Origin: an uncultured Acidobacteriota bacterium
Lineage (GTDB): Bacteria > Acidobacteriota > Polarisedimenticolia > J045
DNA: 64,000 nt
Assembly: GCA_963702425.1 (NCBI GenBank)
Contig: CAVPCQ010000033.1
Coordinates: forward strand, 1 to 64,000
Direction of reading: 5' to 3'
Shown: one piece after another, positions 1 to 13,859 of the stretch
Position numbering within the stretch: position 1 is the stretch's first letter
Layout of the letters: every line of letters starts with the position of its first letter
The notes under the pieces: model-generated
What the model was told of the DNA's origin: nothing
Seen by the model: only the letters and a program-made list of their open reading frames with translations
Database searches by the model: none
Position numbers and translations under genes: made by a program

Positions 1-1
1 C

Positions 2-451
2 GCCGAGGCCCGGGATCGCCTCGCCAAGGCGGATGGACTGCTCAAGAGCCTGCCCGCCGGCACCGACGCGGTGGTGAAGCGGCAGATCGTCGAAGCGTCG
101 CTCAAGGCGTTCGGGGTGCCGGTCGAGCAGATGATCGAGACCGCCTGCGAGGAGATCCAGGCGCTCGACGCCTACCAGCGCAGGGCCGGCGCTAACCTCC
201 AGGCCTTCTGCGACGCGGCGGGGCAGCGGGTCGCGACGCTGGAAGCGGAGATCCGCTCGATCCGGGCCTCGATGGACCAGGAAGTGGAGAACCAGAAGAA
301 GACGCTGGAGACCTGCAACCGGAAGAAGCTCGAGGTGCAGCACGTGCTCGAGTTCTTCGGCCCGGAAGCGGTCGGTCGCATCGTGCGGGCCTCGCCGAAG
401 TTGATCGATCCGAGCGCGCCCGGAGCGGCCGGCGGCCCGCCGGCGAAGTAG
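2..451 (+). CDS. Hypothetical coiled-coil protein, 5'-partial; first visible gene of the PspA operon
   Basis: Frame of ORF 71..451 is open back to the window edge; helical, charged sequence; ends 45 bp before the pspA-like gene. Confidence 0.7.
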   Translation, partial: AEARDRLAKADGLLKSLPAGTDAVVKRQIVEASLKAFGVPVEQMIETACEEIQALDAYQRRAGANLQAFCDAAGQRVATLEAEIRSIRASMDQEVENQKKTLETCNRKKLEVQHVLEFFGPEAVGRIVRASPKLIDPSAPGAAGGPPAK

Positions 452-496
452 CGGACGCGGGCGCGCAGCCGCGTCCCCTGAAGGAGAGCCTATCCC

Positions 497-1208
497 ATGT
501 CGGACATCTCGTTCTTCGCCCGCATCGCGAACCTCTGGAAGGGGTTCCTCTCGATCTGGATCTCCGACATCGAGAAGGAGCACCCGGAGATCGCCTACGA
601 GAACGCCATCAACTCGATGGTCGAGAAGTACACGAAGCTCAAGACGGCGACGGCGGCGATCATCCGCCGCCGCGAGGACATCGACGAGCGCCTGAAGCGG
701 GCGACGCGGAGCTGGCCCAGACCGAGGCAGAGCTCAACGCGGCCATCGAGACGGGCCAGGACGACCTCGCGGTCATCCTGATCCAGAAGAAGAACCAGCT
801 CGCGGCCCACGTCACCGAGATGAAGGCCGACATGGACACCGCGCCCAAGGACGCCGACGCGCCAAGACCTCGATCCTGCAGGTGCAGGGGGAGATCAAGA
901 AGCTGAAGGCCGAGCGCGACATGATGCTCGCGCGGATGCAGTCGGCGCAGGCGCGGATGAAGATCCAGGAGCAGCTCGACGGGCTCTCGGTCGACGCCGA
1001 GGTGAAGGCGCTGGACAACGTGCGCGAGCACATCAAGACGACGGTCGCCGAGGCGAATCTCGGCAAGGAGCTCGCCGAGACCTCGCTCGATTCGCGGCTC
1101 GAGGCACTCAAGACCCAGGCCGGGGACGTGCAGGCCAAGCAGCAGCTGGCCGAGCTGAAGGCGAAGTACGCCGCGCAGCAGGCGGCGCAGGGCCAGAAGA
1201 CGATGTGA
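497..1208 (+). CDS. PspA/IM30 (bacterial ESCRT-III superfamily) protein, interrupted by apparent frameshifts
   Basis: RBS AAGGAG before the ATG. N-terminal amphipathic helix [29 protein letters not shown], then GQDDLA in a second frame and [18 protein letters not shown]...QLAELKAK in ORF 882..1208, matching the PspA pattern. Confidence 0.8.
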
Positions 1209-1311
1209 CGGGCGTCCCGGATGCACCCGGTGCGGCCGAGTTGACGGGCAGGACTGATCGGGCGGGCACGGTCGATCAGACGAGTGTCACGGCGGTCGAA
1301 GGAGAGTACGC

Positions 1312-2935
1312 ATGAAACTCACTGGCGTCGGCAAAGGGTTCGTCACGCTCGTCATCCTCGGCGTCCTCGGGTTCGCCTTCTGGCATTACAAGGGCGACGC
1401 GATCCGCAAGTGGGTCGGCGCCGACCGGACCGCCAAGGCCGAGCCGGTCACCAAGGGCGACTTCGAGTCGCTGAAGAACGCGCCGGCCGACGCCGAGCGC
1501 GGCAAGGGCGGAGCGGCGTCGCCGGCGCGGCGCTCGCCGGCTCCGGCAAGCTCACCCGCCCGCTCGTCGTGGCGATCAACACCTGGGCCGGGCACGCGCC
1601 GGGCATCGTCTTCAACGGCGGGATGGATCCGAGCCCGGCCTCGAGCTACAGGCAGAGCTACGGCCTCGACGTGAAGTTCGTCCTGCTCGAGGACCCGGCG
1701 GCCAAGCTGGCGGCGTTCCGCAAGGGCGACATCGACATCATGTGGAACACCGTCGACAACTGGGCCCGCGAGGCGTCGATCCTCGCCGAGCAGTCGCGAA
1801 GGCGAAGTCGTTCATGATGCAGGACTGGTCGCGCGGCGGCGACGGCATCGTCTCCCTCGCCTCGATCAAGTCGATCGAGGACCTCAAGGGCAAGAAGGTC
1901 GCCTGCACGCAGTTCACGCCGTCGCACTTCCTGCTGCTCTACCTCCTCTCGCAGTCCGGCCTGTCGCCGGAGGACCGCGCCGCGGTCGAGAAGAACATCA
2001 TCTTCACGCAGGACGCTCCGGCCGCCGCCGCGATGTTCAAGGCGAAGCAGGTCGACGCGGCGGTGACCTGGGAGCCGGACCTCTCCGCCGCCGTCACCGC
2101 GCGCGGCGACGAGGCGCACGTGCTCGTCTCGACGACCGCGGCGACGAACATCATCGCCGACACGCTCGTCGCGCGGCAGGACCTGATCGACCGGGCGCCC
2201 GAGACCGTCCGGGACTTCGTCCACGGCTGGTTCGAGGGGATCGAGATGATCAGGAACGACCCTGCCGCGTCGTACGCCGTCGTCGGCAAGGCGCTCAAGC
2301 TGGACGAGGAGACCGTCTCGGGGATGCTCTCCGGCCTCAAGCTGACCCCGTTCGCCGACAACGCGCAGTTCTACGGTCTGACCGGCGGCAAGGCGCACTA
2401 CGAGACGCTCTTCGACACCGCGTTCGTGATCTGGCGCAAGAAGGGGCTCGTGACCAAGCCGGTCGAGGCGCGCGAGTGGGCCGACACGCGCTTCCTCTCG
2501 GGCCTCGCCGCGAGCTACCGCGCGCAGCGGGTCGAGGAGCCGACGCTCGCCGCGAAGGCGCCGTCGGCGCAGGACCGCGCGATCATCAACAAGCAGATCC
2601 AGATCCACTTCACGCCCGGTTCGGACGAGATCATGGCCGGCTCGTTCATCGTGCTCGACGCGCTCGGCGAGACGATGACCTCGTTCGGCAACACCTACCT
2701 GCGCGTCGAGGGGAACACCGACTCGACGGGAAGCGCGACCGCCAACATGTCGCTCTCCGAGCGCCGGGCGCTCGCCGTGAAGAACTACATCGTGCGGAAC
2801 TTCCCGAACATCGCCGCCGTGCGCTTCCAGACGATCGGCCGCGGGCCGGCGAACCCGGTCGCCGACAACAGCACCGAAGCCGGCCGCCAGCTCAACCGCC
2901 GGACCGACATCAAGGTCGTCCTGGCGACGGACTGA
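1312..2935 (+). CDS. Membrane-anchored NMT1/TauA-like ABC substrate-binding protein fused to a C-terminal OmpA-like peptidoglycan-binding domain (frameshifted)
   Basis: RBS AAGGAG; N-terminal TM helix; VAINTWAGHAPG, DWSRGGDGIV, AAVTWEP; OmpA motifs VEGNTDSTG, NMSLSERRA, NRRTDI. Reconstructed from ORFs 1312, 1284 and 1742. Confidence 0.8.
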
Positions 2936-2941
2936 CGCGGC

Positions 2942-3783
2942 ATGGGCCCGGAGGCGAGGGAAAGCGGAAAGAAGGCGGAGGGCGGCGGGCGCAAGCCGGA
3001 TTACTTCGCGCTGCGCGCGCCGCTGCCGAAGGCGCTGTCGCTGTGGCTCGGCCTCGTCGCCCCGGGCGTCGTGCTGCGGCCTGGTGCGTCGCCACCTACG
3101 GCGGCCTCGCCCCGCCCGACTTCCTCCCGTCTCCGACCGAGGTCGTGCGGGGCACGCTGCAGCTCTTCATGCAGCACGAGCTGGGAAGCGCGATCCTGAT
3201 CTCGACGCGGCGGATCGCGCTCGCGTTCTTCCTCGCGGCGGCGCTGGCGCTTCCGCTCGGTATCCTGATGGGCGCCTTCGAGCCCGTCAACCGGGTCTTC
3301 GAGCCGATCATGGCGCCGCTGCGCTACATGCCGATCTCGGCCTTCATCCCGCTCCTCATCCTCTGGTTCGGCATCTACGAGAAGCAGAAGATCGCCTTCC
3401 TCTTCCTCGGCGTCTTCGTCTACCTGCTGCCGGTCGTGGTGACCGCGATCCGCGCCGTGCCGGAAGAACTCGTCCAGACGGCGCTGACGCTCGGCGCCAC
3501 GAAGGCGCAGGTCATCCGCACGGTGCTCGTCCCCGCCGCCCTGCCGGAGATCTTCGACTCGTTCCGGGTGATGAACGCGATCTCGTGGACCTACGTGATC
3601 CTGGCCGAGGCGGTCAACCCCGAGCGCGGGCTCGGCTACATGGTCGAGCTGGCGCGCACGCACCAGAAGGCCTCGTGGTCGTTCGCCGGCCTGCTCGTGA
3701 TCGGCGGCATCGGCCTCTTCACCGACTTCCTGATCCGCAGCGCCTCGCAGATCCTCTTCCGCTGGCGGGAAACGACGGCATGA
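2942..3783 (+). CDS. NitT/TauT-family ABC transporter permease (frameshift near 3075)
   Basis: FLPSPTEV, PLRYMPISAFIPLLILWFGI, EAA-like loop ELVQTALTLGA, WTYVILAE. Confidence 0.85.
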
Positions 3784-4583
3784 GCGACGCGACGACCCCG
3801 GCGACCGCGCCGCCGAAGCTCTCGCTCCAGGACCTCGGCGTGACCTATCTCACGCGCGACGGCGCGGCGACCGAAGCGGTGCGCGGCGTCTCGCTCGATG
3901 TCCACGACAAGCCGGGCGGCGGCGAGATCGTCGTCTTCCTCGGGCCGTCGGGCTGCGGCAAGTCGACGATCCTCAAGGCCGTGGCAGGACTGATCCCGCC
4001 GACCCGCGGACAGGTCCTCGCCGGCGGCAAGCCGGTCACCGGCGTCGGGCGCGACCGCGGGATGGTCTTCCAGGCCTACACCTCGTTCGGCTGGCTGACC
4101 GTGCGCGAGAACGTCGAGTACGGCCTCAAGCTGCAGGGGGTGGCGCCGGACGAGCGCCGGCAACGGTCGAAGAAGTACATCGAGGAGGTCGGCCTCTCCG
4201 ACTTCGCCGACCACTATCCGAAGGACCTCTCGGGCGGGATGAAGCAGCGCGTGGCCATCGCGCGCACGCTGATCAACCGGCCGGACGTCGTGCTGATGGA
4301 CGAGCCGTTCGGGGCGCTCGACCCGCAGACGCGCTGGGGGATGCAGAGCCTGCTGCTCGACGTCTCGCGCGCCGAGGACAACACGATCCTCTTCGTCACG
4401 CACGACGTCTCCGAGGCGGTCTACCTCGCCGACACGGTCTACGTCCTCTCGGCCCGCCCGGCGCAGATCCGGGACCGCGTCGACGTGCCGTACTTCGCGG
4501 AGCGCAACATCGCGCTCAAGTCCGCGGCGGAGTTCCGCGCGGTCGAGAAGACGCTGCTCGACCTGCTCTACCGAGGGGCCTGA
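3780..4583 (+). CDS. NitT/TauT-family ABC transporter ATP-binding protein
   Basis: ATGA overlap with permease; Walker A GPSGCGKST, LSGGMKQR, Walker B LMDEPF, H-loop VTHD. Confidence 0.92.
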   Translation: MSDATTPATAPPKLSLQDLGVTYLTRDGAATEAVRGVSLDVHDKPGGGEIVVFLGPSGCGKSTILKAVAGLIPPTRGQVLAGGKPVTGVGRDRGMVFQAYTSFGWLTVRENVEYGLKLQGVAPDERRQRSKKYIEEVGLSDFADHYPKDLSGGMKQRVAIARTLINRPDVVLMDEPFGALDPQTRWGMQSLLLDVSRAEDNTILFVTHDVSEAVYLADTVYVLSARPAQIRDRVDVPYFAERNIALKSAAEFRAVEKTLLDLLYRGA

Positions 4584-4585
4584 CC

Positions 4586-5548
4586 GTGAGTTCCTCGCTC
4601 CCGCCGAAGGGACCGCCGAAGGCGCAGACCGCGTCGCGGCCGCCGCCGCGGAGCAGTACCGTGACGCCGCCCCGAACCGCCGCCTCCGCGGCGCCGGCGA
4701 AGACCGCCACCACGCCCCCCCTCACCCGCGACAACGCGACCCCGGCGACGGTCACGCGCGCCTACCTCGAGCGGCGCCCCTATCTGAGGATGGCCTTCGC
4801 CAACCCGTACAATCTCTCGCTGCTGTTCGGCACGCTGTCCATCTCGGCAATGACCTCGGAGCCGCTGCTGGCGCTCGCCGCGCTCTCGGTCGAGGCGCTC
4901 TGGCTGCTGTTCGGGCCGGAATCGAAGCTGCTGCAGCGGGTCCTGTGGGACCCGGCCCTCGAGCGCTCGCGCCGCGAGATCGAAGCGAAGGCCCGCGCGG
5001 CGCTCCTCGGCGCGCTGAACCCCGGCGAGCGGCAGCGGGTCGACGCGCTGGTCGAACGGCAGGAGCAGATCCGCAGCCTCGCCGCGCAGAACCCCTCCTT
5101 CACCGGCGACCTGTTGCGCACCGAGCTGTCCAAGACGAACCGACTCGTCGACGCCTTCGTCGAGATGGCGCTCAACTGCGCGCGGTACGAGCGGTATCTC
5201 GACTCGATCGATCCCGCGGAGCTGGAGCGGGACCGCTACCGCTACGGCGAGGCGGTGCGGACCGGCCAGCTCGACGACCAGCAGCTCCAGATCGCGCGGA
5301 AGAACTTCGAGATCGTCACCAAGCGGCTCGAGCGGATGGCGGAGATCCGGCGCTACCTCGAGGTGGCGAGAGGGCAGCTCGACCTGATCGAGAACTCGTT
5401 CCAGCTGATCGCCGACCAGATCGTCACGATGCAGTCCCCCAAGGAACTCTCCGGCCAGCTCGACGAGCTGCTCGACGGCGTCGAGGCGATCCGCGAGACG
5501 GTCCGCGACACCGAGCAGATCCTCGACACGATCGACAAGGAGCTGTGA
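4586..5548 (+). CDS. Hypothetical membrane protein: Pro/Thr-rich N-terminus, TM hairpin, long coiled coil
   Basis: Intact 320-aa ORF tightly packed in the operon; hydrophobic segment NPYNLSLLFG...LWLLFGP followed by charged helices. Confidence 0.75.
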   Translation: MSSSLPPKGPPKAQTASRPPPRSSTVTPPRTAASAAPAKTATTPPLTRDNATPATVTRAYLERRPYLRMAFANPYNLSLLFGTLSISAMTSEPLLALAALSVEALWLLFGPESKLLQRVLWDPALERSRREIEAKARAALLGALNPGERQRVDALVERQEQIRSLAAQNPSFTGDLLRTELSKTNRLVDAFVEMALNCARYERYLDSIDPAELERDRYRYGEAVRTGQLDDQQLQIARKNFEIVTKRLERMAEIRRYLEVARGQLDLIENSFQLIADQIVTMQSPKELSGQLDELLDGVEAIRETVRDTEQILDTIDKEL

Positions 5549-5550
5549 CC

Positions 5551-7404
5551 ATGGCCAGCGCTCGCCTTCTCCCGGCCTGGGCGGAGGAGCTTCGGCGGCG
5601 CTACCTGCGCAACGAAGCCTCCCTCTTCGTCCTCCACGGCAACGTCTACGACGCGGTGGTCCACGAGGGCCGGCTCTGGTCGCTCACCGATTTCCTCACC
5701 GGGGTCCTGCTGCGCGAGACCAAGGAGACGATCGCGGTCTACAACCTCGCGACCGGCGTGCGCTTCGCGAAACGCGCCCGCGTCCTGCCGGAGGTGGGAG
5801 AGCTGCTCGCCGCCGGAGGCCGTGACAAGGCCCTGCTCGCGCTCGAGCAGCTGGTGACCGCCGGAACGAAAACGGCGGCGATCCTCGAGTACGCGGAGAC
5901 GCTGGCGCCCGCGGGGGACGCGTCGTTTCAGGCCGACGCCGACCGCGCGTCGATGATCACGCTGCACCGCTGGTCGTTCCTCCCCGAGATCGAGCGCGGG
6001 GACAACGTCGTGCTGCTCATCACCGAGAACCTGACCGAGCTGTCGCCGAAGCTCGTCTCGAATCCGAAGGTCGGCGTCGTCGACATCCCGATGCCGGATC
6101 TCGAAGCGCGGCGGGCGACGGTCCGGATCGCGGACCCGACGCTGGCCGGCCCGGACGTCGACCGCTACGCGGAATTGACCGCCGGGCTCAAGGCGATCCA
6201 GATCGCGTCGATTCTCACGCCGCCGCCTGCCTCCGAGGAGGAGCGTGCGGACCGCGAGGCGTTCATCGCGACGCTGCTCGGCGGCGGATCGGACGTCGCC
6301 GAGCGGGCGAAGAAGCTCGCCACGCTGACCGCGGGGATGGTCCGCGACGAGATCCGCAAGCTCATCGCCCCCGAGGCCGGCGTCCCCGCGGCGGCGCCGG
6401 TCGACGCCGCGGAACGCGCGCGGCGCGATGCGGACCAGCTGATCGCCGCGCGCAAGCGCGACATCCTCGAGCGCGAGTGCTTCGGCCTGGTCGAGTTCGT
6501 CACGCCGGAGCACGGTTTCGAGGTCGTCGGCGGGATGGACGCGGTGAAGGAGGACCTGCGGGTCATCGCCGACAACATCCGCGAAGGACGCCGCAGCCGC
6601 GTGCCGATGGGCATCCTGTTCACCGGGCCGATGGGGACGGGGAAGACCTTCGTCGCCGAGGCTTTCGCGAAGGAATGCGGGCTCACCACGATCAAGTTGA
6701 AGAACTTCCGCTCGAAGTGGGTGGGAGCGACCGAAGGCAACCTCGAGAAGATCCTGAGCGTCATCAAGGCGATCGGGCAGGTCGTCGTGATCGTCGACGA
6801 GGGCGACCGGGCGTTCGGCAACACCGGCGAGGAGGACGGCGGCACCACCTCCCGAGTGATCGCCCGCATCAAGGAGTTCATGTCCGACACCTCGAACCGC
6901 GGGCGGATCCTGTTCCTCGTGATGACCAACCGCCCCGACCGGCTCGACCTCGACCTCAAGCGCGCCGGGCGCCTCGATCGCAAGATCCCCTTCCTGTACT
7001 CGCAGACGCCGGAGGAAGTGGAGCGGGTCGCCCGCGCCCAGTTCCGGAAGAACCGCATCAAGACGAGCCCCGACCCGCTCGACCTCGTCCCGCTGCGCGA
7101 CCGTTTCTCCGCGAAGCTCGTCGGTTACAGCAACGCCGACGTCGAGGCCGTGGTGCTGATGGCCAACGACGACGCCGCGCGCCAGGCGGGCGGCGACGCG
7201 CCCGTCACGGCGGAGCACCTCGCGGCGGCGGCGGCGGACTACTTCCCGAGCCGCGACGTCGAGCTGCTCGAGTACATGGAGCTGCTCGCGGTCTTCGAGG
7301 CCTCGAGCCGGCGCCTCCTGCCGGCGAAGTACGCGACCCTGACGCCCGAGGAGCTGGACGCGCGGATCAGGCTGCTGCGCGCGACCGTCGGCAACCGGCG
7401 CTGA
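5551..7404 (+). CDS. AAA+ ATPase with a degenerate N-terminal AAA-like domain and an intact C-terminal classical AAA domain
   Basis: Walker A GPMGTGKT, pore loop SKWVG, Walker B IIVDE, sensor/[20 protein letters not shown]. Confidence 0.9.
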
Positions 7405-7517
7405 GGCCGTGGCCGCACGGTGGCCGCCCACAGGTGCCGCTCGAACGCGAGGTGCACCAACTCCATGCGTCCTTGCGCCTCGACGATGTACAACCGTCCC
7501 ATGCGTGAGCTGGTCAC
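7405..7517 (-). pseudogene. Truncated HEPN-domain toxin (N-terminal ~35 aa only)
   Basis: GTGA overlap with the MNT stop; VTSSRMGRLYIVEAQGRMELVHLAFERHLWAATVR resembles the first helix of MNT-associated HEPN proteins, then runs antisense into the AAA gene. Confidence 0.55.
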
Positions 7518-8041
7518 AGCTCCACCACCTCGCCGAAACGAAAGTCGGGCTTCAGGTCCCAGTACCAGCTTCCGTCCGCGAGAAACACGCGACGACTCCC
7601 CAGCGCATGCATCCTCGCTCTCAGCTCCGACAGGACCGATTCGAAGAACCCGCCACGGTCGAGGAGTGCGACGCCGTCCTCGACGAGATCGAGATACAAG
7701 GGGCTGTGCGTCCGGGCTTCGGCGGGCGACTTCGTGACGAGGTTCCACGTGACTGAGGGAAGTCCCGCGGCGGATCGCACGCGATCCCATTCCTCGAGGA
7801 AGGGGCGTCGACGATCGCGCAGGCTTCGTGGCAGGTCCTCGGCGATCACGAGGAGGTCGATGTCCGACGACGGCCCCGCTGCGGCGCGGGCGACGGATCC
7901 AAACAGGACGAGGGAGACCAGCCGCTCTCCGAACCGGGAGTTCCACGCCTCGGTTGCCGCCGCGAGCACCGAGCGGAAGGGCTCCGAAAGTCCCTCGGGG
8001 ATTTGCGGCTTGGCTACCGGGGCTGCGTCCACGGACGCCAT
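7514..8041 (-). CDS. Minimal nucleotidyltransferase (MNT) antitoxin-type protein
   Basis: LVLFGSVAR...SDIDLLV (GSx10DxD Pol-beta motif); C-terminal WYWDLKPD. Confidence 0.88.
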   Translation of the reverse strand: MASVDAAPVAKPQIPEGLSEPFRSVLAAATEAWNSRFGERLVSLVLFGSVARAAAGPSSDIDLLVIAEDLPRSLRDRRRPFLEEWDRVRSAAGLPSVTWNLVTKSPAEARTHSPLYLDLVEDGVALLDRGGFFESVLSELRARMHALGSRRVFLADGSWYWDLKPDFRFGEVVEL

Positions 8042-8076
8042 TGTAGGGCTCCGTGTGCTCCGCTTACAAGCTGCGC

Positions 8077-9927
8077 CTACCGGCCGCGCTGCTTGCGGAA
8101 GCGCTCGAGATCGCGCTGGACGCCCGTGTCGAGCGGATCGATCTTCTGCGCGTCCTCGAGCTGCGCGATCCCTTCGTCGAGGCGGCCGGTCTCGATCAGC
8201 AGCCCGGCGAGCGCCTTGTGGGCCTGGAGCATGTCCGGGCCGGCCTCGATCGCCTTCCGGTAGGCGGCTTCCGCGCCGGCGAGGTCGCGCTTCGCGTCGA
8301 GCAGTTGTCCGATCCGCTGCCAGCCCAGCGCGTAGCCGGGATCGACGCCGACCGCGATGCGGAAGATCTCCAGCGCATTGTCGATGAAGCCCGACAGCAT
8401 CAGCGCCTGGCCGTACTGGTGCAGGAGCGAGACGTTCCGCGGATCCTGGTGCCGCAGCTCCTCGAACAACGGCAGGGAGTCGCGCGGGCGGCCCTGCTGG
8501 GCCATGTCCATCGCCTTGGAGAAGAGCGCGATGTACTCCGTGCGGTCGAGCGGGTTGGTGGCGTTCGGGTCGACGAGGTCGACGCCGGCGCGCCGGGCGT
8601 CCCGACCGCTGGCCGCGTAGCCCAGCGCCTGGAGGTCCTTCATCTGTTCGTCGGAGACTGCCGCGCTGGAATCCGAGGGCGCGGGCGCCGACGCGATCGC
8701 GCGGCGCCGCAGGTCGGTGAGCGCCTCGACGAGCGCCGGGATCTCGGCTGCACGCGCGGTCGCGAGGTCGTGCTTCTCGTGCGGGTCCTCGCCCAGGTCG
8801 TAGAGCGCGGAGCGCGGCGCCTGGATCAGCTTGGTCCGCCCCTGGACCAGCGCGCGCAACCCCGACCAGCCGTACTCGATCTGCGGCATGTAGCTCTCGG
8901 CGAACACGCCGCCCCGCTGCGGGGCCGCGCCGCGGCCGGTCAGCACCGCCGCGAGCGACAGGCCGTCCGCCCCCGGGAGCGCCGGAAGCGCGGTCAGCTC
9001 GAGCACCGTGGGTGCGAAGTCGGCCAGCGAGACGGGCGCGTCGACGACCGCCGGACGGATCCCCCACGCCGGGCCGTGCGCGATCAGCGGGACGCGCATC
9101 ACCTCCTGGAACAGGAAGATGCCGTGGGTCGCCTCGCCGTGATCGCCCAGCCCCTCGCCGTGATCGCTGGCGACGACCGTCAGCACGCGGCCGCGGCCCG
9201 CGTCGTCGATTCCCGAAAGCAGGCGGCCGAGCACCGCATCCGCCGCGGCGACTTCGCCCTGGTAGGGGTCGCCGGCGTGACGCGCCGCGATCTCCGGCGG
9301 CGGCGCGTAGGGCGTGTGCGGCTCGAACAGGTGGACCCAGAGGAAGACCGGCTTCGACTTCGGAACGGTCGCGAGCCAGGCCAGCGCCGCCGCGGCCGTC
9401 TCGTTCCCCGCGCGCTCGGCGAATCCGGTGACACCGCTCCGGCGCGAGGCGGGGAGCGTGATCCGATCATCGAAGACGTCGAAGCCGCGACCGAAGCCCA
9501 GCTTCGAGGACAGGAGCTTGGTCGAGACGAACGCACCGGTCGCGTAGCCGGCCTTCCGGAAGCTCTCCGCGGCGACCGGGACCGACTCCGCGAGCGAGAA
9601 GCCGCTGTTGCTCAGCACGCCGTGTCCCGGAAGCGAGCGCCCGGTCAGGATCGACGCGTGGGCGGGGATCGTGATCGGCGCCGTGGTCTGCGCGGCGTCG
9701 AACCGGACCCCTTCGGCCGCCAGACGGTCCATCACCGCGGTGTCCGCGCCGGACCGGCCGTAGCAGCCGACCCGGTCCGCGCGCAGCGTGTCGATCGTGA
9801 CCAGGACGATCGTCGGGGCGTCGCCGCGGCTCCCGCCGCCGCAGCCCGTGCCGGCGAGCAGGAGCGCGAAGAGAAACAGCGTGCAGAGCGCGTGAATCGA
9901 GCGCGGGCGGGGCCTCGAGCGGGTCAT
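8077..9927 (-). CDS. Sulfatase-like hydrolase with C-terminal TPR repeats, probable lipoprotein
   Basis: Lipobox-like LAGTGC; VTIDTLRAD, TIPAHASILTG, HLFEPH, SDHGE; TPR-like C-terminus. Confidence 0.88.
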   Translation of the reverse strand: MTRSRPRPRSIHALCTLFLFALLLAGTGCGGGSRGDAPTIVLVTIDTLRADRVGCYGRSGADTAVMDRLAAEGVRFDAAQTTAPITIPAHASILTGRSLPGHGVLSNSGFSLAESVPVAAESFRKAGYATGAFVSTKLLSSKLGFGRGFDVFDDRITLPASRRSGVTGFAERAGNETAAAALAWLATVPKSKPVFLWVHLFEPHTPYAPPPEIAARHAGDPYQGEVAAADAVLGRLLSGIDDAGRGRVLTVVASDHGEGLGDHGEATHGIFLFQEVMRVPLIAHGPAWGIRPAVVDAPVSLADFAPTVLELTALPALPGADGLSLAAVLTGRGAAPQRGGVFAESYMPQIEYGWSGLRALVQGRTKLIQAPRSALYDLGEDPHEKHDLATARAAEIPALVEALTDLRRRAIASAPAPSDSSAAVSDEQMKDLQALGYAASGRDARRAGVDLVDPNATNPLDRTEYIALFSKAMDMAQQGRPRDSLPLFEELRHQDPRNVSLLHQYGQALMLSGFIDNALEIFRIAVGVDPGYALGWQRIGQLLDAKRDLAGAEAAYRKAIEAGPDMLQAHKALAGLLIETGRLDEGIAQLEDAQKIDPLDTGVQRDLERFRKQRGR

Positions 9928-10090
9928 GGGGCGGGAGGATAGCAGCCTGGCGAGCGCCGCGCCCCGGCGGGGCCGCGGGAGCGCGGCGCGAAGAAATCGG
10001 TGCCAGGCGGGCCGGATCCCTGTAATAGACTGACCTGATGCAGCGTTACTTCCGGACAGGACGGCGCCTTTCGGCGCATCGCGACCACAA

Positions 10091-13000
10091 ATGAATCAGT
10101 CATCCTCCCCCGAAACCCGTCCGAAGCGCCGGGTCGACCCCCGTTTCCTCGCGGGCGACGGCGTCGTCGGTTTGACGGGCAACGAGCTGCTGGTCAAGGG
10201 CGCGCTCGAGGGGGGCGTGGCGCTGCTGACCGGCTACCCGGGCTCCCCGATCTCCGGCGTCTTCGAGACCGTCGAGGCGATCGCGCCCCACCTGGCCGAG
10301 ATCGGCGTCGTCGCGCAGATCGCCAACAACGAGGCGCTCGCGGCGGCCCGGCTGTCGGGGGCCTGCCAGGCCGGCCTGCGCGCGATGGCCGTGATGAAGT
10401 CGGTCGGCTTCCAGGTCGCCTCGGACGCGCTGGCCACCGGGAACCTCGTCGAGTTCCGGCGCCCCGAGGGGGGCGGACTCGTCGTCACCGGCGACGACCC
10501 GTGGAACGAGTCGACGCAGGTGAACTCCGACTCGCGCTTCCTCTCGATGCACCTGAACATGCCGGTGATCGAGCCCGGTTCGCTGCAGGAGATCAAGGAC
10601 TTCGTCGGTGCGGGGTTCGAGCTGTCGGGTGCCGCGGACCTGCTCGTCACGTTCGTGATCACGACCAACCAGGCCGACGGTGGCGGCACCGTGATCGCGC
10701 GCCCGAACGTCCCGCCGCCGGTGAACGCGATCCAGCGCGGCCACTTCGCCAGCGCCGGCGTGACGACCAGCGACGTGATCATGATTCCGCCCTTCATCAC
10801 GCAGCGCGAGGCGAGCCTGGCCGAGCGCGTGCAGCGGCTGCACGCCCGCGCTCGCGCGCTGCGGCTCGACCGGCGCTTCGGGCCGGAGGAACGCTCGCCG
10901 GTCGGGTTCGTGACCTCGGGCCTCTCGTCGGCCTACCTGAGGAAGGTGCTCGAGCTGGCCGGGCTGTGGGGCGAGGTCCCGGTGCTCAAGCTCGGTCTGA
11001 CCTACCCGATCGACGCCGAGCAGCTGGTCGCGCTTCGCCGCCGGCGTCGACCGGCTGATCGTCGTCGAGGAGAAGCGCGCCTTCGTCGAGATGCAGGCCC
11101 TGCAGGCGATCACCGACGCGGTGCGCGCGGGGCTGTTGGCCAGGGCACCCGAGCTGTGGGGCAAGCAGTTCCCGGCCGGCCGCCCGGGCTTCCCCTCCGT
11201 CGGCGGGATGAACCCGTCGGTGGTGCTCGAGGTGCTCGGCCCGGAACTGATGACTTGGGGCGAGTGGTTCCCGTCGCTCGAGCCGGCGCGGATCGCCGAG
11301 CGGCTGGCGCAGGTCCGCGAGACCGGGAACGGCGCGGACGCGATCCCCCGCCGCACGCCGACCTTCTGCCCTGGCTGCCCGCACCGCGATACCGCGGTGG
11401 TCGCACGCGACCTGAAGCGGCGACTGGGGAAGGATGGCGCGCAGGGTGGACCTGCGGCGGGCGGGGCGGCAGCGGGCGGATCGGCGTCGGGGGGCCCGCG
11501 GCCGCTCGATGTCGTGGTCCACGGCGAGTCGGGCTGCCACACGATGCTCGGCTTCCCGCCCTACTCGGAGCTGATGCAGAACTACGTCGGGATGGGCCTG
11601 GGCGGCGGCGCGGGCGCGGGGATGGGGCCCTTCGTCGACAACCCGCACCTGGTCTTCATGGGCGATTCCACCTTCTTCCACTCCGGGCTGGTGGCGATCT
11701 CCGACTCGATCAAGAACAACCTCGACATCACCTACGTGATCCTCGAGAACAAGACCACGGCGATGACCGGCCACCAGCCGACCGCCGAGAACGCGCAGGA
11801 CATCATGGGGCGCCCGACCCGCACGCAGGACATCGAGCGGATCCTGCGCGGGATGGTCCCGGACGGGCTGATGCTCAAGCGGCTCGACCCCGCGAAGCGG
11901 GACGCCTACGAGCGCGTCCTCGAGGAATGCGTCAAGTCCCCGGGCGTGAAGGTCGTCATCTCCGACAAGGAGTGCGCGATCACGGCGCACCGCCGCGAGA
12001 GCGCCGAGCGCAAGCGCCGGATCGCGGAGCGCGGTTTCATCGAGCGCGAGCAGCGGATCGGGATCGACGAAGAGGTCTGCGACAACTGCCTCGAGTGCGT
12101 CGACCAGACGGCCTGTCCCGGGCTGGCGGTCGTCGAGACGCCGCTCGGGCCGAAGATCGGCACCGACCTCACGACCTGCGTCGACGACGGGGCCTGCTCG
12201 CGGACACGGGCGTGTCCTTCGTTCGCGCGGCTGACGATCCGACGGCGGGCAGCGCCCGCGGCGGCTTCGCGCAGCGGTGCGGAAGGCGGCGGCGCGGCAG
12301 CTTCTGGTCCGGCCGCTGTCGGGGCGGGAGCGGCCGGCACGGCGGGTGTCGAGCCGGCGGCGCTGCCGCCGCCGCCCGAGGTCCCCGCCGTCGATCCAGC
12401 GGGTACCTGGTCGGCGTACCTCGGCGGAGTCGGCGGAATGGGGATCGGCGTGCTGACTGGGATCGTCGCGCGCGCCGGCGAGTTCGACGGTTACCACGCG
12501 CACTTCGTGACGCGCAACGGCCTGGCGATCCGCAACGGCGGCGTCTACGGCCACCTGGTCCTGTCGCGCGGCACGCCGCCCGACTCACCGTTCGAGTTCT
12601 ACGGCGACGCTGACCTGCTGCTGGGAATCGACCTGCTCGAGGCCTGCCGCGGCGCGCACCCCGGCGGCAACCTTCGCGTCGCGCACCGCGGGCGGACCAA
12701 GGCCGTCGTAAACCTCGGCGCGCAGCAGACGGTCCTGTCGCAGGCCTCGCGGGACGTCCTGGACACCGAGGCGCTCGCCGGTCTGCTCCGCACCCGCACC
12801 CGCGACGACGCCAGCCTGTTCGCCGACTTCTCGCGCGTCGCCGAGGCCGAGCTGGGTTCGCGCGTCTTCGTCAACGTGATGCTGCTCGGCGTCGCGTTCC
12901 AAAGGGGCTGGCTGCCGCTGACGGAGGGGGCGCTGGTTCGGTCGATCGAGGGGAACGTCCGCGCCGCGGACCGCGCCGCGAACCTGCGCGCTTTCCGGCT

Positions 13001-13859
13001 GGGGCGCGAGCTGGCGCTGGCGCCGCCCGAGGAGCGGAGTGCGGGGGCGGGGGCGGCGACGGGCGCCGGGACGGCGCCGGGCTCGGCAACGGTGGGTTAC
13101 GGCGAGACCGTCGCGGCGCGCGCCGCACTGATCGAGCGCGAGCGCGGCGGCGGCGCGAGCGCGGCGGCCGGGTATCGCCGACTCGCCCTCGCGGCGGGCG
13201 AGGAGCTGGCGCTGCCGGAGGCCGACCGCCGGTACGCCGCCCACGCGCTGGCCGACCTCGTCCGCTACGGCGGCGTCGAGCTGGCCGAACGCTACCAGTC
13301 GCACCTGCGAGCGGTCCTGGCGCACGACGGCAGCGAGCGCGGGTTCCGGGCGACGCAGGCGGCGTTGCGCGCGTTCTTCCGCCTGATGGCCCCCAAGGAC
13401 GAGTTCTGGGTCGCGCGCCTGCTCACCTCCCCCGAGAAGCTGGAGCGCGACCGAAAGAAGTACGGCATCGATCCCTCGCGCGGCGACTCGCTCGGCTACG
13501 CCTTCCTGGTGCGGCCGCGGTTGCGGGTGCTCGGGCGCGAGCTGGAGCTCCCGGTGGCGGCGCCGCCCTGGGTCCTTCGGCTGGTCGCGTCCTGCTCGTT
13601 CCTGCGGACCTGGGGCCGCGGGTGGAACCGCGAGGACGACGAGTTCTTCGCCTGGTTCCTCGCTGCCGTCGACGAGGCGGGTCGCGACGGGGACTACGAG
13701 CGGTTGGTGAAGATCCTCAAACGCGGCGCGGAGGTCGTCGGGTTCCGTGACATCCGTGGCCGCAACCGGGACGCTGCGCGGCGCGCGATCACGGCGCTGC
13801 GGGCGGAGCGGGGGGGCGCGCGGGCGGAGGCACGCCTCGCGTCGGTCTCCGCGGGTTAG
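10091..13859 (+). CDS. Indolepyruvate:ferredoxin oxidoreductase family, fused alpha/beta single chain (frameshift near 11040)
   Basis: TGYPGSP, ANNEALA, TFCPGCPH, TPP motif MGDSTFFHSG..N, ferredoxin CDNCLEC...C, beta-subunit GVGGMG and NLRAFRLG. Confidence 0.88.

Follow-up and report, generated by a model that had tools for sequence, protein, structure and literature searches.

Gene content of the locus

We analyzed a 64,000-nucleotide stretch of DNA (hereafter the window) that forms the start of contig C33 in an Acidobacteriota assembly (G000). Seven co-directional genes on the + strand lie at positions 2-7404, where an initial annotation had placed them, and encode a helical protein (orf1), PspA, the binding protein, permease, and ATPase of an ABC transporter, a transmembrane (TM) helical protein, and a tandem AAA+ ATPase (Table 1). 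The cluster is a real new example of an operon class that has already been described computationally, and its PspA ends in a short motif that appears to vary together with the AAA+ ATPase. Ravi et al. 2024 (mSystems, PMC11237479; here and below, papers are cited for the passages found) list the same six-gene order from genome comparisons, for example at OGG56892.1, so the computational record goes beyond the PspA-AAA neighborhoods mentioned in the initial annotation: the full gene order is already in print. The last four junctions of the cluster, from the binding protein through the AAA+ ATPase, are 6, -4, 2, and 2 bases, and this spacing suggests translational coupling.

Five single-base deletions interrupt the window's genes, two in pspA (near 706 and 859), two in the binding protein gene (near 1513 and ~1797), and one in the permease gene (near 3077). 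These breaks are probably assembly errors, because other copies and short-read contigs are intact at those sites. A second copy of window positions 1-13433 lies in the same assembly (contig C7, 16548-29985, 97.8% identity) and a third copy of the region in a same-genus genome (G004:C2); neither copy lacks the base at any of the five sites, and each carries indels of its own at sites differing from those of the window. Short-read contigs have the extra base at 706, 859, 1513, and 3077 in 3/3 DNA runs and at the second binding-protein site (1796) in 2/3. We therefore analyzed the first four genes through the intact C7 copies, which match PspA_IM30 (69 bits, cut-off 33.9), OmpA and NMT1 (57 and 49 bits), and BPD_transp_1 (69 bits). 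For the ABC and AAA genes we used the window's own sequences, which match ABC_tran and AAA. The duplicated region probably represents two strains. Identity between the window and C7 is 91.0% in pspA, 94.8% in the binding protein gene, and 99.7% downstream, and the first ~3.5 kb of the contig, which holds all five deletions, may be a different haplotype or a recombined allele.

The initial annotation's identification of PspA is secure, as this is a true PspA/Vipp1 homolog that matches Vipp1/PspA structures with E-values of 1e-27 to 1e-10; its N-terminal amphipathic helix has a moment of 1.35. PspB and PspC, reported as missing from the window, were found nowhere in the 91% complete genome in searches with positive controls (PspF was not searched for), and a classical PspABC/PspF system was therefore rejected.

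Table 1. Positions of the clustered genes and of the PspA tail in the window
Feature	Position	Strand	Remarks
orf1	<2-451	+	5'-truncated since the window starts at the contig end; accessory
pspA (PspA/Vipp1/IM30, ESCRT-III superfamily)	497-1208	+	237 aa when intact
C-terminal Lys-Thr-Met tail of PspA	1197..1205	+	candidate docking tag for the AAA+ ATPase (putative function)
NMT1/SsuA/TauA-type binding protein, OmpA fusion	1312-2935	+	541 aa when intact
NitT/TauT-family ABC permease	2942-3783	+	280 aa when intact
NitT/TauT-family ABC ATPase	3780-4583	+	267 aa
TM/coiled-coil helical protein	4586-5548	+	320 aa
Tandem AAA+ ATPase	5551-7404	+	617 aa

Conservation and modularity of the cluster

The mapping covered the best 80 of 224 related loci along with 40, 25, and 20 stretches taken from genome matches, as well as 34 of 82 metagenome and viral loci that are 6 kb or longer. 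The genome-level counts are all from a single phylum, the Acidobacteriota, in which kin are not independent, and one member of the close-clade set (L078) is an unpublished genome (G276) that adds one row to the counts and to alignments A4 and A6. Of 55 close Acidobacteriota loci whose flanks are long enough, 53 have the genes for orf1, PspA, the binding protein, ABC, and AAA around the TM gene (the permease was left unscored, and the two misses are L079 and L089), while the AAA gene lies directly 3' of the TM gene in 73 of 75 close-clade loci. This co-occurrence is far beyond chance, and the initial annotation's treatment of these genes as a linked set holds. The same gene order recurs at 11-35% identity.

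At the genome level, the TM protein was matched in at least 44 of 251 genomes with a first profile and in 84 of 401 Acidobacteriota genomes with a broader one, and the ATPase profile matched 40 of 251; the system is common within the phylum. Outside one family, f43, the ATPase was present in 54 of 56 TM-positive genomes, the two misses being a contig end and a fragment. Within f43 it was present in none of the 28 TM-positive genomes (0/15 and 0/13).

The genes of distant loci come in several combinations. These include PspA-binding protein-permease-ABC-TM-AAA, in many cases preceded by a vWA gene and followed by a gene of ~95 aa; PspA-TM-AAA without the transporter; PspA-TM alone, which is the arrangement of family f43; pspA, TM, and AAA genes that are unlinked, in family f58; and the TM gene with the transporter, where the fetched stretch showed no PspA (L167, L181-L184). 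The cluster is thus modular, and the initial annotation's description of it as a self-contained machine does not survive.

A divergent second type of locus (L181-L184 and G086:C2 254667-259807) comprises one or two binding proteins, a permease, an ABC ATPase, and a TM gene, with no PspA detected nearby. In the vWA-containing subtype (L015, L176, L200, and other metagenome loci), the ~95-aa gene after the ATPase is conserved and has no Pfam family. Two IMG/VR contigs (L274 and L275, 91 and 186 kb) carry vWA-PspA-binding protein/OmpA-permease-ABC-TM-AAA in that order.

The tandem AAA+ ATPase

By profile, the best solved relatives of the ATPase are VAT, Cdc48, and p97. Its AlphaFold model (predicted local distance difference test, pLDDT, 83) shows two AAA+ folds without an additional domain at the N-terminus, and it superposes at full length over ~600 columns on N-deleted Rix7, NVL, and Cdc48 D1-D2 (template modeling scores 0.55-0.65). 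The first AAA domain (D1) is degenerate, with HGNV and EYAE at the Walker motif positions and neither GKT nor DE, whereas D2 is intact: it has a Walker A motif (GPMGTGKT, 359), a Walker B motif (VDE, 415-417), a pore loop (KWVG, 389), and arginine fingers (R471/R474). In classical AAA proteins, Walker motifs, an aromatic pore loop, and arginine fingers are the equipment of a pore-threading unfoldase. All 69 aligned ATPases keep the D2 Walker A motif (G..GxGK[TS]), the Walker B DE, two arginine fingers, and an aromatic pore loop, which reads KWVG in 65 of them.

Judged from its motifs and predicted fold, the protein resembles Cdc48 and Rix7: it is a tandem AAA whose first ring is dead and whose second is intact. 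The model indicates that it works like the D1-D2 core of Cdc48/p97/VAT, though it is not a member of that family. Membership of Cdc48/p97/VAT was rejected for the lack of an N-domain and the dead D1 (TIGR01243, 81 bits against a cut-off of 803), and membership of Vps4/CdvC for the second AAA+ fold at the N-terminus in a model that has no three-helix MIT domain (CdvC hidden Markov model (HMM), 58 bits against a cut-off of 650). The initial annotation had cast the AAA+ protein as a polymer-disassembling counterpart of Vps4; the disassembly part of this claim would fit the intact translocase module and the co-varying PspA tail described below, but the protein is not Vps4-like, given its dead D1 and missing MIT domain. 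Stand-alone divergent tandem ATPases with a dead D1 were also seen at L141, L143, L145, L146, and L148-L150, with no genes of the operon within ~8 kb.

The C-terminal tail of PspA

PspAs of the close clade end in KTM, KTL, or KSM. Distant PspAs, at 11-24% identity, carry KTLG, KELG, KDMG, RTLG, and similar sequences in a low-complexity tail after the last helix. We counted these ends with a loose pattern, [KR][TSED][LMI](G|end) within the last 30 residues, which was defined after viewing the first data set; five duplicate and four frameshifted loci were dropped from the first count. The pattern occurred in 59/59 close and 23/26 distant ATPase-linked PspAs, and in 2/596 background windows. A strict version, in which G is followed by P, S, or A, was a post hoc refinement; it was present in 0/15 PspAs of f43 and left the positives unchanged among the rows on the tree. 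In sets fetched after the pattern had been fixed, the tail was present in 12/12 and then 12/17 ATPase-linked PspAs, the misses being three KNLGP variants and two IMG/VR copies. This brings the total to 106/114, counting L157, on whose contig the sequence stops short of the ATPase position. Among genomes without the system, the motif was found in 0/5 PspAs; these five belong to 4 of 60 genomes that neither the TM nor the ATPase profile had matched.

Comparison of loci with different gene content indicates what the tail follows. Six genomes with the ATPase and without the binding protein-OmpA fusion (G183, G055, G260, G234, G498, and G610, with generic OmpA matches only) keep the motif, so the tail does not track the transporter. 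By the same kind of comparison it does not track the TM protein, because the TM protein stays well conserved in ATPase-less f43, where the tail is absent. The tail is also kept in f58 genomes with unlinked pspA, TM, and AAA genes. In a PspA tree built without the tails, f43 forms one clade (support 99) on a short branch beside sisters that bear both motif and ATPase, and the motif persists across branches much longer than that of f43. The sequences therefore make the link between tail and ATPase suggestive, not proven, because the ATPase appears to have been lost in a single event and one subgroup of f43 retains a degenerate KQI[GSA] stretch.

The divergent PspAs of the IMG/VR loci (L274, L275) lack the tail motif, and PspAs of the vWA subtype (L015, L176, L200, and others) share a further conserved element in the tail, G[LM][KR]SPET, ahead of a KDLGP motif.

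Alternatively, the TM protein (or the transporter) could be the main client or adaptor of the ATPase, which would then extract membrane proteins or act as a quality-control motor, with PspA only stabilizing the membrane and its tail binding something else or persisting as a lineage relic. Cdc48/p97, Rix7, and NVL, the closest structures, extract clients from complexes and membranes; furthermore, the AAA gene appears translationally coupled to the TM gene in the 73 close loci counted above, and the ATPase accompanies nearly every TM-positive genome outside f43. However, f43 lost the ATPase while its TM protein was conserved and its PspA tail changed, and AAA-PspA dyads without a TM gene are reported from Clostridium (Ravi et al., PMC11237479). 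We consider this explanation unlikely.

The TM helical protein and the transporter

The AlphaFold model of the TM protein (pLDDT 87) consists of a disordered N-terminus, a hydrophobic helical hairpin (74-109), of which only the second helix is above the hydropathy threshold, and an elongated helical bundle on the cytoplasmic side (143-320). Profile searches gave no family match. Ravi et al. (PMC11237479) label this protein 'SIG+TM+Snf7', a divergent Snf7, but our searches did not reproduce that label: profile-profile comparison with PspA (hhalign) gave a probability of 2.4%, PF03357 reached 13 bits on one TM homolog only in a search that also failed its Sulfolobus control, and fold searches with the cytoplasmic domain returned only generic helical bundles. 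The nearest named Atlas cluster is Rv2743c/PspM, which anchors PspA in mycobacteria (0.88, 186/256 features, 40% of members), and we treat this match as a lead only; the PspM HMM (PF25587) did not match the TM genes, and it was also under its cut-off in a Corynebacterium control. The protein is probably a membrane anchor or nucleator of PspA, which is the simplest reading because its gene lies directly 3' of pspA in minimal loci. That it recruits PspA, and that the transporter senses a ligand, as the initial annotation had it, is something that we infer. Two TM paralogs each were seen in G086, G119, and G131.

The binding protein has an N-terminal membrane anchor, an NMT1/SsuA/TauA-type domain, and a C-terminal OmpA-like peptidoglycan-binding domain. 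D471 and R486 of its OmpA motif (GxTD...LSxxRA), which we take to be the peptidoglycan-binding residues, are invariant in 40/40 rows. The best models for the ABC ATPase are taurine, SaoA, and nitrate types, all under their cut-offs. The transporter is linked to the cluster in most loci, and the binding protein-OmpA transporter was absent from 7/7 tested genomes with transporter-less or unlinked PspA/TM/AAA genes (the six named above and G489), although G086 has a second locus that does carry a transporter. The orf1 product is intact in the C7 copy (218 aa, helical) and had no Pfam, NCBIfam, or PDB match, only unnamed Atlas clusters at 0.94-0.95. Its gene lies upstream of pspA in the close clade and was not found in 5/5 tested genomes with PspA-TM-AAA only, in a search without a positive control.

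These components could also be read as a transport-coupled machine for membrane budding or cargo sorting, in which PspA and a TM-anchored Snf7 co-polymerize around the wall-tethered binding protein. Such a machine would resemble archaeal (Meth_adaptin) ESCRT loci, some of which contain a ProX binding protein (Makarova et al. 2024, PMC10936438), and the Snf7 label and the usual linkage of the transporter fit it as well. The transporter's absence from all seven genomes above argues against it, as do the profile-profile probability of 2.4% between the TM protein and PspA and the modeled fold of the former, a compact bundle unlike the open ESCRT-III hairpin. We regard budding or sorting as improbable.

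A proposed role in PspA recycling

We propose that the TM protein anchors PspA, that the tandem ATPase captures the PspA tail and recycles the polymer, and that the wall-tethered importer and orf1 are optional, a proposal to which we give an even chance. The cluster would then be a modular unit for inner-membrane remodeling or repair built on PspA. The two-helix membrane protein would stand in for PspBC and anchor or nucleate PspA polymers on the cytoplasmic side of the membrane, and a dedicated hexameric Cdc48-type unfoldase would recycle the polymer. To capture PspA, this unfoldase would bind the short K[TED][LM]G/KTM tag on the flexible tail that follows the last helix, probably with its catalytically dead D1 ring or at the entrance of the pore; it would then thread PspA through the active D2 pore, as the motifs and the co-variation suggest. 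The NitT/TauT-type importer and orf1 would be frequent yet dispensable add-ons; they would probably secure the machine at the peptidoglycan, or send signals from there, and provide a small solute. We infer each physical interaction in this scheme, and the physiological trigger as well.

Several observations weigh against this recycling role. The ATPase occurred without a TM match (first profile) in 12/40 ATPase-positive genomes, several divergent ATPases have no PspA nearby, and no PspA was detected in the stretches fetched for some loci with the TM gene and transporter (L167, L181-L184); other clients are therefore possible for both the ATPase and the TM protein. Among ATPase-linked PspAs, eight do not have the strict motif (L144, L147, L151, the three KNLGP variants, and both IMG/VR copies), and the loose pattern was present in 2/15 PspAs of f43, both at the end of the last helix. 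The ATPase-less PspAs are one clade and hence one loss event, the degenerate KQI[GSA] stretch in one f43 subgroup lies ~25-30 residues from the end, the pattern was fixed post hoc on the first data set, and the genome-level counts are restricted to one phylum.

A 2025 review (PMC7619361) states that a Vps4-like ATPase appears to be absent in bacteria. A 2026 review (PMC13051332) considers it not yet clear what controls polymerization and disassembly; for Vipp1, it points to chaperones. It is tempting to speculate that bacteria independently evolved ESCRT-III recycling, in which a double-ring ATPase derived from Cdc48, its first ring dead, would read the linear K[TED][LM]G/KTM tag of PspA, as a functional counterpart of the MIT-interacting motif (MIM) and MIT pair, and disassemble PspA polymers nucleated by the two-helix membrane protein at wall-tethered sites; we hold this broader idea tentatively and find it somewhat doubtful. 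The operon class supplies a dedicated candidate motor for PspA disassembly, and the tail motif makes the link between PspA and this motor readily testable, with family f43 as a natural ATPase-less control. Because the operon type is already in print, its value lies in this testability and not in discovery.

Flanking genes

A minimal nucleotidyltransferase gene (7514-8041, - strand; PF01909, 32 bits) is convergent with the end of the operon, and a sulfatase-TPR fusion protein is encoded further downstream (8077-9927, - strand). Upstream of orf1, the C7 copy has a gene with an Xre/MbcA/ParS-type antitoxin C-terminal domain (L016 10577-10987, - strand; PF09722), and the same position in G004 holds a different gene, of 441 aa and no known family. 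Going by labels read from the sequence, a sigma-54-type regulator and a flagellar cluster precede both of these genes, and the site upstream of orf1 looks variable.

We also considered whether the cluster serves in anti-phage defense or in conflict between phage and host. In favor of this, its distribution is patchy (an orthologous ATPase was present in only 2/40 sampled relatives), it adjoins antitoxin-like and nucleotidyltransferase genes, the whole cassette occurs on two IMG/VR contigs, and there are weak matches to IetA/IteA. However, the PADLOC matches are to generic domains (MotB-like OmpA, ABC ATPase, and a 26-bit AAA), whole families (f43, f32, and f58) keep the system vertically, and the cluster contains no effector or toxin domain, all of which makes a role in phage conflict very unlikely.

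Comparison with known systems

The closest known counterpart is the operon of Ravi et al. (PMC11237479), for which ATP-dependent remodeling coupled to transport was proposed. The six-gene order and domain content are identical: PspA_IM30, then SIG+PBPB+OmpA, permease, and ABC ATPase in order, a membrane-anchored helical protein between the ABC ATPase and the AAA, and a tandem AAA+ with an inactive N-terminal copy. The window differs in its added, conserved orf1 and in the PspA tail motif, which does not appear in the passages of that paper. Popp et al. 2022 (PMC9239133) note band-7 partners for Acidobacteriota PspA, with no mention of this operon in the passages found, and in the literature covered, which largely excludes subscription journals and the web tables of Ravi et al., we found neither experimental work on the operon nor any reference to the PspA tail.

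Other systems share single components. NitT/TauT importers (SsuABC/TauABC/SaoAPX) also combine an NMT1/SsuA-type binding protein, a permease, and an ATPase, but the binding protein of the window is membrane-anchored and fused to OmpA, and all equivalog scores are below cut-off. The enterobacterial PspABC-PspF system differs in two components that were not found in this genome, PspB and PspC, and in that PspF is a transcription activator and not an unfoldase. Mycobacterial PspA-PspM (Rv2744c-Rv2743c) is similar in that PspA adjoins a two-TM membrane partner whose Atlas cluster is the nearest named one, but the TM protein is not matched by the PspM HMM, and PspM occurs only in mycobacteria and corynebacteria (Ravi et al., PMC11237479).

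The ESCRT-III/Vps4 systems (CdvB/CdvC, with MIM-MIT docking) offer the broadest parallel. The ATPase of the window differs from Vps4 in its two AAA domains, the first of them dead, and in having no MIT domain, and is closer to Cdc48/VAT/Rix7. The tails differ as well, since the MIM is leucine-rich and helical, while PspA of this operon class carries K[TED][LM]G. Common to both are an ESCRT-III-family polymer, a dedicated classical AAA+ unfoldase, and a short tail motif on the polymer subunit.

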